The notes beneath the pieces were generated by a model. That model was not told the DNA's origin, did not search any database, and was given only the letters and a program-made list of their open reading frames with translations. A stretch of DNA of 13,829 nucleotides from Candidatus Altiarchaeota archaeon (GTDB lineage: Archaea; Altiarchaeota; Altiarchaeia; IMC4; SCGC-AAA252-I15), in contig JAZDIN010000041.1 in assembly GCA_043804895.1 (NCBI GenBank), positions 1 through 13,829 on the forward strand, written 5' to 3'. Position numbers and translations under genes: made by a program. Positions 2,664-12,904 of the stretch are shown piece by piece; positions within the stretch are counted from its first letter, which is position 1; each line of letters begins with the position of its first letter.

Positions 2664-3089
2664 TTAACCTCTTACAGTTTTTTCTACTGTCTTGGCTAGC
2701 TTGTCTATTACGCCCTTAATGTCTGCCTCTCTTCTTTTTAGGAATCCGCTCGCTAGTGGTTCTCCGCGGTATTGTATGTCGTTCCTTATCTCCCTCATCT
2801 GGTTTATGAGTTCTAACTCGTCTTTTCCAAACTCTGGGTGGAATTCCTGCAGGAAGCTTATCAGGCATTCGTGGCTGTAGCTTTTGTAGCCTCTGCTGAA
2901 GAGTAATGCTGTGGTTAGCTCCTTTATGGACTCATAGTAGTCCTCGACTATGAATTCTGGATCCTCAGTTTGCCTCCTCCTAGCGATTGAGTTAAGGCGT
3001 TTGACTGCCAGTTCTGTCATGGCTTTAGCCCTCTCGTTGTCTGGTCTGATGGCTTTAACTTTCTCTTTCATGCAGTCCGTCCACTTCAT
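2664..3089 (-). CDS. HEPN-domain protein (putative toxin partner of MNT)
   Basis: 141 aa helical protein, YYESIKE, SHEC and RNDIQY motifs; start overlaps the MNT stop (ATGA). Confidence 0.8.
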   Translation of the reverse strand: MKWTDCMKEKVKAIRPDNERAKAMTELAVKRLNSIARRRQTEDPEFIVEDYYESIKELTTALLFSRGYKSYSHECLISFLQEFHPEFGKDELELINQMREIRNDIQYRGEPLASGFLKRREADIKGVIDKLAKTVEKTVRG

Positions 3090-3610
3090 TGTTTCACCTT
3101 CAGGAACCCTTTGAGGACTATTCCATTAGCGAGATTGTTTATGAATTCCGGGGTTAGTTTTCTCATGTCTGATTCGAAGAGTAGGTTGACCTTTCTGTTG
3201 AACTCCTTTTCATACCTTCCTATTTCTATTTTGACTTTTTCAGATTGTACAAAAATGTCGATGTCACCTCTTTCATCGTCTCTTCCTTCCACAGCGGAGC
3301 CGTACAATACTATGCAGGTTGGCCTGCATTTTTCTTCAAGTTTTTGTATGAAACCCGTATCCTCTATCTGGGCCAGCAGATCGTTTCTTTTGTAAATTCT
3401 TGTTTTTTCGGAGTCAATTAGCTTATATCCAGGGTATACTCCGTGCTTGACTTTCTCGAGGAAACCCTTCTTCTCTAATGATCTGACGTGGTTTCTGGTT
3501 GAAGGAAGTGACACTCTAGTGTATCTTACCAATTCTCGAAGTTGGAATACTCTTGATGGTGAACGGAAGAATACCCTTAGGATTTTATACCTGTTAAAGT
3601 CTTGATACAT
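3086..3610 (-). CDS. wHTH-fused minimal nucleotidyltransferase (MNT antitoxin-like)
   Basis: N-terminal HTH (LRELVRYTRVSLPSTRNHVRSLEKKG) and GS-x10-DID motif (YGSAVEGRDDERGDID). Confidence 0.88.
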   Translation of the reverse strand: MYQDFNRYKILRVFFRSPSRVFQLRELVRYTRVSLPSTRNHVRSLEKKGFLEKVKHGVYPGYKLIDSEKTRIYKRNDLLAQIEDTGFIQKLEEKCRPTCIVLYGSAVEGRDDERGDIDIFVQSEKVKIEIGRYEKEFNRKVNLLFESDMRKLTPEFINNLANGIVLKGFLKVKQ

Positions 3611-5202: not shown

Positions 5203-5311
5203 ACGACCGCAGCCTTTAGGCTGCGCTATTACAAATACGCTCAAAATGCCAAACAGCCAAACAAGCACAGGAGGTGCTAGCGAGTAGCTGAATCCTCGCG
5301 TATTTGTAATG
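5203..5311 (+). repeat. Structured intergenic repeat, copy 1
   Basis: Hairpin CGCAGCC-TTTA-GGCTGCG (5208-5225); perfect 13-bp inverted repeat ATTACAAATACGC (5228-5240) / GCGTATTTGTAAT (5298-5310); 24-nt and 19-nt blocks identical to 12440-12537. Confidence 0.9.
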
Positions 5312-5701
5312 AAGGTCGTCCTGGACACAAACATCTTCATCTCCGCCATATTCTGGGGTGGAATTCCAGAGAAGATACTAGAATACCTCAGCGGGGGTAG
5401 GTTCACATTAGTCTCATCAGATGAGATACTCGATGAGTTAACCGACGTCCTGACGGAATATGACATGCCCGTCGCAGATGTGCTGGTTTGGCGGCGCTAC
5501 CTCCTAGCGAATTCCATGCTCGTGAAGCCAACAGCAAAGATTGAAGTCTGCACTGACAAGAAAGACGACAAATTCATTGAAGCTGCAAATGCCGCCAACG
5601 CAGACTACATAGTCTCCGGGGATAAGCACCTCCTAAGACTCAAAGAACATCAACAGACAAAAATACTCACAGCAAGGGAATTCCTAAAACTCCTAGATTA
5701 A
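5309..5701 (+). CDS. vapC: PIN-domain (VapC-like) toxin
   Basis: MKVVLDTNIFISA, DDKFIEAA and IVSGDKHLL acidic PIN motifs. Confidence 0.92.
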   Translation: MKVVLDTNIFISAIFWGGIPEKILEYLSGGRFTLVSSDEILDELTDVLTEYDMPVADVLVWRRYLLANSMLVKPTAKIEVCTDKKDDKFIEAANAANADYIVSGDKHLLRLKEHQQTKILTAREFLKLLD

Positions 5702-6537
5702 CGCGTCGTCCTGTATACTCCGTAGATTATCAGTGCTGCTCCGATGAGTGTGAGTGGGGGTGGCATTTCCCCGAGCACGAGGAGTGCGGCCGCGGTTCCG
5801 ATGAGCGGCTCCAGTGCGGTTATTATGAATATCTTTTGCGCTTTCACCTTACCTGCGCCCTCCATGAACAGGATGAACGCTATGCCGGTGCATAGGATTC
5901 CCATAGCAAGAAGCTGCCACCAGTTGCCCAACGCCGCTGATGCTGACTCAGCCCTGAAAAAGAAAAGGAACATGACTGCCATCACAGCCTGCTGCCAGAA
6001 TGCAGTGTAGTATCCAGGGGCCTTCTTCATCAGCGGCTTCGCTGTCAAGGCCATCGCAGCGTATAGGAATCCTGAGATGAGCCCCAGGATGTTGCCAACG
6101 GTCTCTTTGGAGTCGAAGGAAAAGCTAGCTGGGTTCAGTATCAGGACTATTCCTGTGAGGGTGAGGACAATCCCGGTTACGGTCTCCCTCTCGATTCTCT
6201 CCTTGAAGAATATCCTCGCTAGAATCGCAGAGAAGATGGGGGCGGTGTAAAGCAGGAATATCGCGTTAGAGATTGACGTCCTCATCACAGCTGAAAAGTA
6301 GGTGAGTATCCCGAAACCCTGGACCACTCCCACAAGGAGCGTCTTGCCTGGATGAACCAAAGACAGCTCCCTAACCCGGTCTCTTAGTACGACGACCGCT
6401 AGGATGAACAGCATCCCAATCAACGCCCTGTAGAAGATGATGGAATAAACGTCCAAACCATGCACAAGCCTCACGAACACGCCCACCGTCCCAACAAACA
6501 GTGAATATAAAATCAACTCCAAGTACCCCTTATCCAT
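5698..6537 (-). CDS. EamA/DMT family transporter
   Basis: About 10 TM segments, LLYTAPIF...FFKERI and LEP...LGE motifs; start set at ATG 6537 (MDKGY), which overlaps the methyltransferase stop (TGATG). Confidence 0.92.
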   Translation of the reverse strand: MDKGYLELILYSLFVGTVGVFVRLVHGLDVYSIIFYRALIGMLFILAVVVLRDRVRELSLVHPGKTLLVGVVQGFGILTYFSAVMRTSISNAIFLLYTAPIFSAILARIFFKERIERETVTGIVLTLTGIVLILNPASFSFDSKETVGNILGLISGFLYAAMALTAKPLMKKAPGYYTAFWQQAVMAVMFLFFFRAESASAALGNWWQLLAMGILCTGIAFILFMEGAGKVKAQKIFIITALEPLIGTAAALLVLGEMPPPLTLIGAALIIYGVYRTTR

Positions 6538-7775
6538 CACACCCTCCTGAGGACGACTGCGCTTTCTCTTGCTGGCCGTTCTTTTTTTATGTCGTGTACG
6601 TCGGCCCAGCGTACGTTGCCTACCCATATGTCTTCTACTTGGAGGCCTATTTTCTCTCCTAGTTCGGCGAGCATGAGGTCGACGTCGACTGTGATTCCTG
6701 GCAGGCTGACGTTTCCGACAACGTATACTGCGCACCCTCCGGGTTTGAGGACTCTTTTCGTCTCCTGCAGAGCCATGTACAAGTCTCTCATGTACCCTTC
6801 GACAATCACTGGAGTCTTCGCATCACCAGTCACTCTGCCAAGCACATCCGTGGGGGTGACATCTCCCTTCCTCTCATATTCAGCGCCTATATGGCTTCTC
6901 ATGGTTCTTCTCCTAAAATTCTCCAACTCCTTTGTTGATGAAAGAAGCAGGCTCAACTCCAGCGCGTAGACTTTTGTATAGTCTACGAAGTTTAGGTAAG
7001 GCGGCGACGTTATCATAGCATCGACTGAGGCGTCATCGAGCTGGAGATTCCGCGCGTCACCGACATCCACACTCCAATCCACTCCACTCTCCATCTTCCT
7101 TCCCTCGACATCCTTCACCATCCTCTTCAGCTTGTTCTTGAGAAGATGCCTCACTGGTGGCATATGGTTTTTCCTCACCAACCTCAGGACTCCACCATCT
7201 TTCATCACGTTCGATGCCTGACCGACGATGCTTATGAGTCCTAGCATGAGGAAGTTCCTAACCTTCTCGTCTTCGACTGCCATGATGTTCTCCCTGAAGA
7301 ACGCTATGTCGTTTCTCGCGTACGGTGTGAACACCTTACGCATGTCAAGGAACCGTATGTCAACGAGTTTAGACTCAGGCTGCCTGTACCTCATAGTACA
7401 CAGCCTACTGACTGCCTCTCTAAGTTCACTGACGTCGTAGTCTTCAAGCTTTACCTTCGAGACGAAGACTCCGAGTGGAAGGATGTCGAATCCTACGGAA
7501 CCGTAGCCAGCCTCCTTGGCTGCCAGGAGCGTCGTCCCGGTTCCGCAGAACGGGTCAAGTATCTGCGACCCGGTTGGGACATCAAGTTCCTTCAAAGCAC
7601 CTAAAACGAAGTCTCTGGAGTATCCCTCCTTGTAGTAGAACCAGTTGTAGACTGGCGTGACCTTGTTCTGGGCGAAGGTGTAGAGGTCAGCGTACTCGAA
7701 GCGTGGCGTGAGCTTCTTCTCAAACTGGTTGACGCCGGTCAGGGACTCTTGGAACAACCTGTTGAAATCAGCCAT
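6537..7775 (-). CDS. Site-specific DNA methyltransferase, probably N4-cytosine
   Basis: WFYYKEGYS, SAM-binding DPFCGTGTT, and later catalytic TSPPY (motif I before motif IV). Confidence 0.85.
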   Translation of the reverse strand: MADFNRLFQESLTGVNQFEKKLTPRFEYADLYTFAQNKVTPVYNWFYYKEGYSRDFVLGALKELDVPTGSQILDPFCGTGTTLLAAKEAGYGSVGFDILPLGVFVSKVKLEDYDVSELREAVSRLCTMRYRQPESKLVDIRFLDMRKVFTPYARNDIAFFRENIMAVEDEKVRNFLMLGLISIVGQASNVMKDGGVLRLVRKNHMPPVRHLLKNKLKRMVKDVEGRKMESGVDWSVDVGDARNLQLDDASVDAMITSPPYLNFVDYTKVYALELSLLLSSTKELENFRRRTMRSHIGAEYERKGDVTPTDVLGRVTGDAKTPVIVEGYMRDLYMALQETKRVLKPGGCAVYVVGNVSLPGITVDVDLMLAELGEKIGLQVEDIWVGNVRWADVHDIKKERPARESAVVLRRV

Positions 7776-7809: not shown

Positions 7810-8790
7810 TCACTCGCCCAGGACTCCATACTTATGCGTGAGGTTTTCCTTGGTCTTCTGCAGTATGTCCCTCCCCACTGGGCTGTTCAGATGGGTTGCG
7901 TACTCGTATGTGTGCATGAAGGTTCTTAGCGCGTTAGCCGCTGTCCTGTGGCTCCTTATCCTTATGCCCCCCTGTATGTCGTTATGCTCATCCCGCATGA
8001 ATATTATGAACTCCACCGGCTCCTTCTGCTGGACGATAGCCACACCAAGCCCGTGGGGGCTGTCAATGTAGCGTATGTCCAGGTTCTTGTGCGTTTCCAT
8101 CTGGGTCCTCAGTTTATCTATCGTAGTCAGGCTCTCCTGGTATGCTATCTTCGGGTCGCCGTATGTCCTGAACGCGTGGTTGAACAGCGTGTCCATGTTA
8201 AGTTCTGTCAGGATGTTCATCTGCGTTTTTTTGTTTTTGAGCGTCTGCCACAGCTTCTCAGCGTACGGCTCCCTCCCAAGGGTGTGAGTCATCTCCCTGC
8301 TGTATGCTATGGTCGGGAAGTCGGTCACAACATAAAATGCATCCGACTTCTCAAGAGAGTCCGCTAAAGCAAGGTAAAGTTGCTCGCCCTCCAGGTAATG
8401 TATGTCAGGCTGCTCCTTACGATACGTCAGCTCCTTGAAGAACTGCTCAATCTCATTCTGCGTCCTCTCACAGTCCTCCACATCCTTCCTCAAACCCTGC
8501 TTCGATTCCTCGATCGCACCCCTGATTCCCTCCTGGTCCAGCGCATACTCGGCCAGTGCTGCCCTCACTATGACCTTCTTGTTCTGCAATGTCTTCAGTA
8601 TGTTGAAGAGGTTCGGCTTTATGATTATCTTATTGTGCTCAGTCCTGTACTCCCTCTGGATGTTCTTAGGGGTCGGCTTCACTCCACGATTCCTAAGCCT
8701 GTAGATGACCTTAACAATATCATACTGCTGCTGGGTTAGGCTGGTCCATCTCCTAAAGTTGATCTCATCCACGCTCAACATTCTGCACAC
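7810..8790 (-). CDS. Putative TrmB-like transcriptional regulator (N-terminal wHTH, coiled coil, C-terminal alpha/beta domain)
   Basis: LTQQQYDIVKVIY...PNLFNILKTLQNKKVI resembles a wHTH, followed by a charged helix and IHYLEGEQLY; start is GTG 8790 or ATG 8781; function inferred. Confidence 0.55.
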   Translation of the reverse strand: MCRMLSVDEINFRRWTSLTQQQYDIVKVIYRLRNRGVKPTPKNIQREYRTEHNKIIIKPNLFNILKTLQNKKVIVRAALAEYALDQEGIRGAIEESKQGLRKDVEDCERTQNEIEQFFKELTYRKEQPDIHYLEGEQLYLALADSLEKSDAFYVVTDFPTIAYSREMTHTLGREPYAEKLWQTLKNKKTQMNILTELNMDTLFNHAFRTYGDPKIAYQESLTTIDKLRTQMETHKNLDIRYIDSPHGLGVAIVQQKEPVEFIIFMRDEHNDIQGGIRIRSHRTAANALRTFMHTYEYATHLNSPVGRDILQKTKENLTHKYGVLGE

Positions 8791-8805
8791 AAATATATGA
8801 ATTGA

Positions 8806-8826
8806 TACTATAATCTATAGTACTAT
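8806..8826. promoter_or_regulatory. Overlapping palindromes upstream of the TrmB-like gene
   Basis: TACTATA-ATC-TATAGTA (8806-8822) and ATAGTACTAT (8817-8826). Confidence 0.45.
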
Positions 8827-8875
8827 CCTTTAATATAATACCTAATTCTGGGTTTGCACATTAACTCTAAGATTC

Positions 8876-8961
8876 ACTTAACATATCGGCTTATGCGAAG
8901 TCCACGAAGTGGATTTGGGAAACAGAAGTGCAACGAGGTTTCTGCATAAGCCGTGTTAAGT
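8876..8961 (-). other. attC-like recombination site
   Basis: Minus strand reads ACTTAAC (RYYYAAC) acggc TTATGC-A-GAA ... TTC-GCATAA gccgatat GTTAAGT (GTTRRRY); 86 bp, one extrahelical base, internal TCCAC-GAA-GTGGA hairpin; lies downstream of the deaminase stop. Confidence 0.7.
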
Positions 8962-9029
8962 GAGCCGAAGGCGAGAGTGCAACGTGCCGACGAACAGCAA
9001 AGCTGTGAGGAGCGTAAATTTTGGCGGCT

Positions 9030-9494
9030 TTACTGCGACAAGTCAAACAACTTTAGACATTCATTTCTAAGAAATCCTTCAACCAATTCGAGTTTTGGAG
9101 TGCCTTTTTTAAGAACATCTTTGCAGGGTATACCAATCTGTCTCCATGAGAAATTCTTTCTTTGTCTTTGCTTTGCATCTTCGATAAAAGCTCCAAAAAC
9201 AATTCCCTTCATTTTTGCCCAAATTGCAGCAGACGCACACATTGGACAAGGTTCATGTGTAGAATAAAGAATACATCCTTCTAAGTATTTTGAATTTAAG
9301 TTTTTGCAAGCATTTCTTATAGAAACAATTTCAGCATGAACTGTTGGATCATTTTCATGCTTTAAATGTGTTGTTCCTGTAGCAATAATCTCATCATCTT
9401 TAACAATTACTGCACCTAAAGCGTAATCTCCATTTTTTGCAGATTCCTTAGCAAGTTCTATTGCTTTTTGCATGAATTCCTTTTTTGCTTGCAT
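9030..9494 (-). CDS. Zinc-dependent nucleoside/nucleobase deaminase (TadA/GuaD-like CDA superfamily)
   Basis: HAE and PCPMC motifs; GC visibly lower than neighbours (20/60 in line 9061-9120). Confidence 0.93.
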   Translation of the reverse strand: MQAKKEFMQKAIELAKESAKNGDYALGAVIVKDDEIIATGTTHLKHENDPTVHAEIVSIRNACKNLNSKYLEGCILYSTHEPCPMCASAAIWAKMKGIVFGAFIEDAKQRQRKNFSWRQIGIPCKDVLKKGTPKLELVEGFLRNECLKLFDLSQ

Positions 9495-9516
9495 AAATCT
9501 AATAGAATAATTAGAG

Positions 9517-9524
9517 ATATAAAA
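9517..9524 (-). promoter_or_regulatory. TATA box of the deaminase gene (leaderless spacing)
   Basis: TTTTATAT ending about 23 nt before the ATG at 9494. Confidence 0.55.
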
Positions 9525-9547
9525 GTCTTGTGGCCGCCAAAATTTAT

Positions 9548-9587
9548 TTCACTTAACAACAATTAAGCGACAAAAAGTCCGCTTAAT
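9548..9587 (-). other. Second core site with hairpin (truncated attC or attI-like)
   Basis: TTCACTTAACA (9548-9558) repeats 8873-8883 exactly; adjacent hairpin on minus strand ATTAAGC-G-GAC-TTTTT-GTC-GCTTAAT; no RYYYAAC partner on the far side. Confidence 0.55.
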
Positions 9588-9642
9588 CCTCTAATCTAGT
9601 CATTATCCAGTACTTCTTATAAATGTGCAAACCCGCCTAATT

Positions 9643-9864
9643 CTACAACTTATTACCTAGTTCTTCCCTCGTCATCCCAACATGTTCCAGAATATTCAGT
9701 AGCGTGCCCTTCTTGAGAGTATCGTGTAAGGGTATCGTAACTCTGTTGAATGGATGCGTTATCCTCTTTAAAGTGACATGGCTTCCCTTTCGCGAATGTA
9801 TGACATACCCCTCATGCAGAAGCAGTTTTATAATCTCCTCACCAGAAACAACGGGGAGTTTCAT
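9643..9864 (-). CDS. hicA: HicA family toxin
   Basis: LPVVSGEEIIKLL...RKGSHVTL...VTIPLH...KKGTLLNIL. Confidence 0.93.
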   Translation of the reverse strand: MKLPVVSGEEIIKLLLHEGYVIHSRKGSHVTLKRITHPFNRVTIPLHDTLKKGTLLNILEHVGMTREELGNKL

Positions 9865-10085
9865 GACAGGGAAACGACATCAATATATGCTTTCGGAAGT
9901 TTGTCAGGCTTTACACCATCCTGTCTAAGACTGTCAAGGTGGCATTCAATCGCTTCACGAGCATTACGCAGGGCCTCCTCTTTTGTGTTCCCTTGTGTGA
10001 AGCATCCTGGCAAACCCAGCACTATCACAGTGTATCCGCCTTCCTCAGCAGGCTGTAATACAACTTTATACTTGTGTGAGTTCAT
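9861..10085 (-). CDS. hicB: HicB family antitoxin (short form without an obvious DNA-binding domain)
   Basis: EEGGYTV...LPGCFTQGNTKEEALRNAREAI; stop overlaps the hicA start (ATGA). Confidence 0.93.
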   Translation of the reverse strand: MNSHKYKVVLQPAEEGGYTVIVLGLPGCFTQGNTKEEALRNAREAIECHLDSLRQDGVKPDKLPKAYIDVVSLS

Positions 10086-12535: not shown

Positions 12536-12904
12536 AAAAAAGCCCAGTTAAGCATGGAGGCCGTTGGTGCGGTATCTCTTATCATGCTTCTTTTCACAGC
12601 TGCGTTGGGTTTGAAGCTCAACCTACAGGATGAGATGGCTGACCGAACTATGCTGCTCGTGGAAGACGTGGATTGCAGCGACCTCTCAGCTGCCCTCAAC
12701 GCAGTCTACTCCAACGGACCTGGGGCTGAGACGGTGTTAGTGGTTGGAGGGAATTTCACCGTACGCCCGGGTCTTGTAGAGTTAGGCACTACAGACGGTA
12801 CATACTACTGCAACATCGACAACAACGCAATCGACGGTGTGACGACGCTCACCGCACGCACATATACGATAAAAAATGTCAAAGGCAAGGTCGAGTTCAC
12901 ATAA
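12533..12904 (+). CDS. Class III signal peptide (pilin-like) protein
   Basis: MKKAQ-LSME plus hydrophobic helix; ATG 12533 is the plausible start, not 12482. Confidence 0.8.
   Translation: MKKAQLSMEAVGAVSLIMLLFTAALGLKLNLQDEMADRTMLLVEDVDCSDLSAALNAVYSNGPGAETVLVVGGNFTVRPGLVELGTTDGTYYCNIDNNAIDGVTTLTARTYTIKNVKGKVEFT

Follow-up and report, generated by a model that had tools for sequence, protein, structure and literature searches.

A transposase-less inverted-repeat element that probably carries an integron-like docking site and a single gene cassette in an Altiarchaeota genome

How small can a mobile platform for gene cassettes become, and could it dispense with the genes for both enzymes that would move it? 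The question is raised by an element of 787 bp (8849-9635) on a contig of 13,829 nucleotides from Candidatus Altiarchaeota archaeon (assembly GCA_043804895.1, contig JAZDIN010000041.1). We refer to this whole stretch, all of which was analyzed, as the window; it is the entire contig C41 of the metagenome-assembled genome (MAG) G000 (1.58 Mb, 71 contigs, 88.7% complete), and was compared within a set of 61 genomes of the phylum, G000 included. The initial annotation had proposed a terminal inverted repeat (TIR) element without a transposase, carrying an integron-like cassette. All of the repeats it listed are present at the coordinates given below, both on reading of the sequence and with a repeat finder, and we consider that the locus is probably a non-autonomous TIR element with nothing inside but a truncated attI/dif-like docking site and one cassette bounded by a hairpin, in which two mobility systems are nested. 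Its parts are as follows, with the strand in brackets where the feature has one.

8841-8848: target-site duplication, left copy CCTAATTC (9 bp if base 8849 is included; repeat finder)
8849-8862 (+): left terminal inverted repeat TGGGTTTGCACATT; the same end is found on contigs C11 and C35 of this genome
8863-8872: left backbone spacer, common to the copy on C11 (block 8849-8881 aligned, 91% over 33 nt)
8873-8883: core copy 1 TTCACTTAACA, forming the outer hairpin arm and the distal boundary of the cassette; similarity to C11 ends here
8874-8963 (+): attC-like imperfect hairpin with R stem, TAT bulge (8884-8886), L stem and two inner hairpins (z = -6.5)
8964-9014 (+): GC-rich site tail between hairpin and trailer (88% identity to G031:C49; also in relatives)
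9015-9028: cassette trailer, one arm of a 14-nt inner inverted repeat (repeat finder)
9030-9494 (-): cargo gene, AT-rich, for a 154-aa CDA-fold nucleoside deaminase with HAE and PCxxC motifs (Pfam dCMP_cyt_deam_1)
9515-9524 (-): TATA-like box about 21-30 nt upstream of the ATG (by eye only)
9533-9546: cassette leader, other arm of the 14-nt inner inverted repeat (repeat finder)
9548-9558: core copy 2 TTCACTTAACA, proximal cassette boundary in the docking site; similarity to C11 resumes here
9549-9587: attI/dif-like docking site made of arm TCACTTAA, a 6-nt spacer, arm TTAAGCGA and inverted box CGCTTAA (homologous sites in relatives)
9588-9621: right backbone, common to the C11 copy (81.5% over 92 nt, 9546-9634)
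9622-9635 (-): right terminal inverted repeat; tip base C where the left end has T
9636-9643: target-site duplication, right copy, overlapping the hicA stop codon
9643-10085 (-): flanking hicA (9643-9864) and hicB (9861-10085), outside the element

Evidence for this reading comes from a second full copy, found by BLAST of the element against its own genome and subsequent alignment. This copy of 1133 bp (G000:C11:36042-37174) is located on a contig of 59 kb, with ordinary chromosomal genes on both sides. Its right 92 nt are 81.5% identical to those of the window copy and its left 33 nt 91%, its ends match the terminal repeat of the window at 11 of 13 and 12 of 13 positions, and it is flanked by a perfect repeat of its own, ACAGTTAGG, which differs from that of the window and extends to 14 nt if the GGGTT beyond it is counted (the duplications being CCTAATTC(T) in the window and (A)CAGTTAGG on C11). 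The two copies resemble each other only over 8849-8881 and 9546-9634, and the similarity breaks and resumes at the core TTCACTTAA on either side of the cargo. What lies between is different: the cargo on C11 is a 263-aa open reading frame (ORF) unrelated to the deaminase of the window, and its hairpin is its own (z = -3.5), with a 3-nt bulge on the same arm as in the window hairpin and a T instead of a G before TTAAGT. That both ends of the cargo break at a shared core, with a separate hairpin for each cargo, is what an exchange of the attI x attC type predicts, and would otherwise be an unlikely coincidence. Copies with different cargo, one of the expectations that came with the initial annotation, thus exist in the form of the C11 element, with its unrelated ORF and separate duplication.

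The outer boundaries of the window copy are formed by a perfect inverted repeat of 13 nt, GGGTTTGCACATT (8850-8862 / 9622-9634; 13 of 14 matching with the tip base), adjoined by a direct repeat of 9 nt, CCTAATTCT (8841-8849 / 9636-9644). A perfect inverted repeat of at least 13 nt together with an adjoining direct repeat of at least 8 nt is found a single time in the window and in none of 200 shuffles of it, in which bare inverted pairs arose 120 times in total. The right direct repeat overlaps the stop codon of hicA (9643-9645; the hicA match has an E-value of 2e-14), so the insertion lies directly after this gene. The GC content is 0.37 in the element and 0.34 in its ORF, versus 0.45-0.48 in the flanks; the deaminase gene is the only credible ORF inside the element, which holds no transposase gene.

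A lack of other GGGTTTGCACATT-ended elements had been named beforehand as an outcome that would refute the proposal, but such elements do exist: besides the C11 copy, a solo end GGGTTTGCACATAAATT of about 25 nt was found at C35:40691, directly after CCTAACTCT. Beyond this solo end (G000:C35:40682-40720; L033:4683-4720), unrelated sequence of normal GC content runs to the end of the contig, for 1.9 kb, and the end may belong either to a truncated copy or to a larger element whose other end is unassembled. Under an 8-bp duplication the tip of the end is a T in four of the five ends, and we therefore read the end as TGGGTTTGCACAT with a duplication of 8 bp, 9 bp being also possible. The targets of all three insertions share CCTAAYT[CG]T, with the element in either orientation relative to the target; CCTAAYTSTGGGTT has four matches in G000 and one chance match elsewhere. 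Two of the three insertions lie directly after a 12-mer, GTAGTGCCTAAC, of which G000 has 33 copies (e.g., C17:13092-13230), including one in the window at 12778-12793 (-). This 12-mer is found in 39 of the 61 phylum genomes with up to 71 copies, compared with 0-1 for its reversed control; the copies have unrelated flanks and in some cases cluster 25-75 nt apart.

The hairpin that bounds the cargo belongs to a widespread family of sites. It spans 90 nt, with stems at 8874-8883/8954-8963 and 8887-8896/8944-8953, and folds with -24.5 kcal/mol (z = -6.5), a stability reached by none of 200 shuffles; the tail at 8964-9014 alone folds no better than its shuffles (z = -0.07). The outer cores typical of attC, RYYYAAC and GTTRRRY, are present as ACTTAAC (8876-8882) and GTTAAGT (8955-8961). 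An alignment of seven such hairpins from five genomes reveals a common structure, consisting of a TAAC/GTTA stem, a 3-nt bulge and an 11-bp stem, with compensatory changes at 9 of 18 consensus pairs. The covariance model R1 built from this alignment (match threshold E <= 0.01) gives the window hairpin 83.6 bits and matches 35 of the 61 phylum genomes, at up to 29 sites per genome. Matches form co-oriented arrays spaced by about 0.7-2 kb, as in G051:C2 (four sites), G026:C1 (four sites, 277-281 kb), G011:C8 and G020:C32, and in G039:C12 and G037:C28 they lie directly upstream of a recombinase gene, in the same relative orientation as in the window. The model has exactly two matches in G000, one in each of the two full TIR elements, with which an nhmmer profile of the tail region agrees. 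No Rfam family reaches its gathering score anywhere in the window, and the stretch 8780-9700 has only chance-level matches. The cargo is thus bounded as a cassette would be, in line with the proposal, by a hairpin from an array-forming family on one side and, at 9548-9587, by a match to docking sites that adjoin recombinase genes on the other; removal of the 675-bp cassette would leave about 112 bp, close to the 110 bp first estimated. We do not regard the 14-bp inner inverted repeat as a separate layer: complementarity of leader and trailer around the ORF is also seen in cassettes of G020, G014 and G037, with sequences that differ per cassette, and is a trait common to this cassette family. 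A single hairpin-bounded cassette with GTTAACC-type cores was also seen in the chromosome of a genome of the same genus (L134, G002:C133, 1501-2900, reverse), with no TIRs and no docking-site boxes seen around it.

On the other side of the cargo, the docking site of the window has an arm-spacer-arm layout of 8, 6 and 8 nt followed by an inverted box, and the box pair folds. The stretch 9548-9587 is homologous to sites found a short distance upstream of genes for XerA-like tyrosine recombinases in relatives. When we inspected 16 loci with recombinases of 267-297 aa by eye, the same layout was seen upstream of the gene in 14 (3 partial): a YTAAC-type core followed by a box, its inverted copy and a third, direct copy, with a box sequence that differs by recombinase lineage (TTAAGCGAG, TTAAACGCAC, TTTACGCAG). 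The window site has neither the third box nor a recombinase gene. Two recombinases encoded beside such homologous sites in relatives score 191.2 and 168.2 bits with the integron integrase model TIGR02249 (cut-off 265), each match being split in two stretches, and 209.6 and 172.5 bits with XerA_Arch NF040815 (cut-off 220). Given the sub-cut-off and split TIGR02249 scores, we regard these enzymes as XerA-like and devoid of the IntI insert. Because the recombinase of the relatives lacks this hallmark of integron integrases, the system is integron-like, but not an integron.

Tyrosine recombinases (PF00589) are found in 37 of the 61 phylum genomes, with many of the best matches at the very start of contigs. 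The genes at L057, L061-L063, L070, L071, L073, L074 and others lie within about 0.1-0.7 kb of where their contig begins, and the break falls at the docking site. The variable arrays beside the recombinase seem to be where assemblies are interrupted, which may explain the apparent lack of the gene in G000. The recombinase may be the host's own xerA, unassembled here, since in relatives this gene is often found next to arrays at the ends of contigs. A docking site that matches the pattern exactly is found in G014, beside a carbamoyltransferase gene; at this locus (L027, G014:C11, 9300-12300) all three docking boxes are seen and no recombinase gene. The site heads a 3.1-kb AT-rich island (GC about 0.29 versus 0.52-0.58) with a GmrSD-type restriction gene and two small ORFs.

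Both cargo genes are, as judged from sequence comparison, foreign and of different origin. The ORF at 9030-9494 matches dCMP_cyt_deam_1 (PF00383) at 1.5e-28, and its product shares 92% identity with a "nucleoside deaminase [Candidatus Woesearchaeota archaeon]", with dozens of close relatives named Nanoarchaeota or Pacearchaeota, and deaminases at 84-92% identity on Woesearchaeota and Nanoarchaeota contigs; its best match within the phylum reaches 44%, and the paralogue in G000, on contig C7, 41%. Viral contigs held no relative of the deaminase and no match to the leader pattern. The C11 cargo has named relatives in Methanophagales, ANME-2 (anaerobic methanotrophic archaea) and Methanosarcinales, the best named one at 61%. 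In a related genome, a contig of 2618 bp (L031, G020:C4) contains one complete cassette between two hairpin sites. This cassette encodes a fused C5 DNA methylase / R.HinP1I-like endonuclease and a Vsr endonuclease, which suggests that defence genes travel as cassettes in this system. Taken with the restriction-modification and GmrSD genes in the cassettes of relatives, the foreign origin of the two cargo genes indicates that the system moves foreign accessory genes.

The rest of the window is rich in accessory genes, with ORFs at 2664-3610 (-), 5309-5701 (+) and 6537-7775 (-). A nucleotidyltransferase-type ORF is accompanied by a partner ORF; there are also an ORF with a PIN domain and a DNA methyltransferase-like one, the latter overlapping an ORF called as an EamA transporter. 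An Nre_N/Nre_C protein is also encoded, from which the host is recognized as an archaeon.

We propose that the element would move on two levels. On the outer level, a putative transposase acting in trans would recognize the 14-bp ends TGGGTTTGCACAT(T/A) and insert the element at CCTAAYTS sites, with a duplication of 8-9 bp; this transposition we infer. On the inner level, as suggested by homology and by the anatomy of the sites, an XerA-like tyrosine recombinase would bind the arm-spacer-arm stretch at 9549-9570 and the folded hairpin at the cassette end. Strand exchange would then take place at the shared core TCACTTAA|C, in the manner of attI x attC in integrons or of hairpin x dif in CTX-type phages, the crossover being bracketed only to the 9-11 nt of identity, and cassettes would thereby enter and leave the element. 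It is possible, and we put this forward tentatively, that a miniature transposon has copied an Xer-based docking site and so become a portable landing pad, which seeds cassette-capture sites within a genome, and perhaps from one genome to another, without either enzyme and homes to the 12-mer GTAGTGCCTAAC, the other strand of which reads like the cassette core GTTAGGC.

Several results weigh against this model. The element is known from one MAG only, as two full copies and one solo end, and its ends were not found in the other 60 phylum genomes. The right-end pattern is present in one of the 49 genomes of the order, namely G000, and a 12-mer of the terminal repeat has single matches in 4 of the 60 other genomes, as many as its reversed control and all in unrelated contexts. 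The left-end pattern has no match in metagenome contigs or in genome contigs, and the target-plus-TIR pattern has four and one, respectively, in the metagenome and genome-collection scans, which we read as chance matches inside coding DNA. When the 99 bp of the right end were used for BLAST, only the docking-site part recurred. An autonomous element with the same ends, an empty form of about 112 bp (110 bp in the initial annotation) and an empty target had all been anticipated. The first was found neither in G000, nor in the 60 other phylum genomes, nor in the collection scans, and the other two were likewise looked for in the genome, its relatives and the collections without success; the flanks of the window match different contigs in genomes of the same genus, and those of C11 are not syntenic in 20 genomes of the family, where no empty site was found either. 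A link to the IS1595, IS6 and IS1 families had also been suggested, for which we have no backing: PF12762 (IS1595) and PF13610 (IS6) are absent from G000, as are the transposase families PF01610, PF00872 and PF01609, and IS1 was not searched. Nor was a tyrosine recombinase (PF00589) found in G000, at its 88.7% completeness. A strict regular expression for the box pair matched at 3 of 30 recombinase loci, and was replaced by the inspection by eye, which is softer evidence. On C11, the flank past the right duplication (GGGTTGCGC...) resembles the TIR, in a direct repeat of 14 nt, which would also fit site-specific integration, and the other strand of the duplication reads RTTAGG, like the cassette core sites of relatives. 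A 19-nt match of the right end in G031 was set aside as a promoter-like stretch without an element end.

These observations leave room for other explanations, of which the most serious concerns the outer layer. The latter could result from site-specific integration, with the GGGTTTGCACAT ends as recombinase-binding arms, an overlap of 8-9 bp, and the flanking repeats as attL and attR cores. Three insertions at near-identical CCTAAYT[CG]T sites, two of them directly after a 12-mer over-represented across the phylum, would suit such a process, as would the 14 nt of identity between the C11 flank past the repeat and the element end, the geometry of the joined ends (13-nt inverted arms around a spacer of 9-10 nt), and the lack of a DDE transposase among the five families searched in G000. 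Yet the flanking repeats are perfect within each copy and differ at two of nine positions between copies, which fits a duplication upon insertion and not a fixed overlap; the reconstructed target of the window has no arm similar to the ends; and the element is found in both orientations relative to its target. As the ends are also unlike the TTAAG(C/T)G boxes of the local recombinase system, we consider site-specific integration unlikely. The related idea that the outer repeat is a cassette core for the same recombinase was rejected, the ends having no TTAAG(C/T)G boxes, and is kept only as part of this alternative.

Concerning the inner layer, the difference in cargo might stem from homologous recombination or from independent captures, the docking site being a dead relic. 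There are only two copies, the docking site is devoid of the third box of full platforms, no recombinase was found in the genome, and the backbone is just 81-91% identical between copies, which makes the events old. However, the breakpoints fall on the same core of 9-11 nt at both cassette ends in both copies, and each cargo has its own complete hairpin of the array-bounding family, so that we regard such a history as quite improbable. Finally, the window is a short contig (13.8 kb) from a MAG, where repeats might arise by chance or by an assembly error with no element at all; with 0 of 200 shuffles, an independent copy on a 59-kb contig, and homologues of hairpin and docking site in many genomes, this explanation has next to no weight. 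We thus retain a transposable element that carries a cassette docking site as the preferred interpretation.

To our knowledge, integron-type platforms are regarded as immobile unless they are part of a larger transposon or plasmid on which the integrase is encoded as well. The element described here would represent the smallest conceivable mobile platform, with two 14-bp ends that enclose no more than a docking site and a single cassette, and its cargo has kin in other archaeal groups, the deaminase in the DPANN and the C11 gene in ANME/Methanosarcinales-type archaea. If it is active, cassette-capture sites would spread separately from the recombinase, which would help to account for cassettes found in isolation and for arrays without an integrase in fragmented archaeal genomes. 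If, in addition, the 12-mer is a recombinase or uptake signal, both levels of mobility would be linked with the host motif in a single system for the acquisition of genes of other phyla. With about 112 bp and a hairpin, the element also offers a compact substrate for probing integron-like hairpin recombination by XerA-like recombinases of the Altiarchaeota or DPANN type. Altiarchaeota are reported to be rich in insertion sequences (PMC13343696). In the literature we found no description of a single TIR element with only a docking site and one cassette, nor of an XerA-based cassette system in Altiarchaeota.

The comparison with known systems reveals several partial parallels. As in integrons, one-gene cassettes with an imperfect hairpin and outer arms RYYYAAC / GTTRRRY form co-oriented arrays and would be exchanged at a short core, the double-stranded docking site of the relatives adjoins a divergently transcribed tyrosine recombinase gene, and different cassettes occupy the same site in different copies (window and C11). 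Unlike in integrons, the recombinases of the relatives are XerA-like proteins of 267-285 aa without the IntI insert, the ORF of the cassettes is enclosed by a leader and a trailer complementary to each other, with a GC-rich tail in addition, and the docking site of the window lies inside a TIR element without any recombinase. Integrons with a true IntI and canonical attC sites have been published from archaeal MAGs, in a survey that excluded singleton attC sites and in which recombination of archaeal attC sites was assayed in E. coli (Ghaly et al. 2022, PMC9668308). In bacteria, a trans-acting transposase is described as moving integron structures in the form of a MITE-integron-MITE (MITE, miniature inverted-repeat transposable element) and of a 288-bp integron mobilization unit, which share with our element the non-autonomous inverted-repeat design and the duplications flanking the whole structure; in the arrangement described, two MITEs flank a complete or defective class 1 integron with its integrase gene (PMC3575428). 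Here, by contrast, a single small element in an archaeal host contains a docking site and one cassette only.

Class 1 integrons on defective transposons of the Tn402 type are likewise platforms bounded by inverted repeats and mobilized in trans, but they keep intI1, measure several kb and produce duplications of 5 bp, whereas the element of the window has no recombinase and duplications of 8-9 bp. Mobile insertion cassettes, as they have been described, resemble it in their short terminal inverted repeats, their duplication and a passenger gene in place of a transposase gene. In the known examples their cargo is fixed, whereas the cargo bay of the window element is a recombination site, with different cassettes in the two copies. 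Integrative mobile elements exploiting Xer (IMEX), such as the CTX phage, resemble the inner level, with an Xer recombinase acting at dif, a layout of arm, 6-nt spacer and arm, and a folded single-strand hairpin as the incoming partner. In the system described here, unlike in IMEX, the incoming units would be small, array-forming gene cassettes, and a mobile element appears to have acquired a copy of the docking site.

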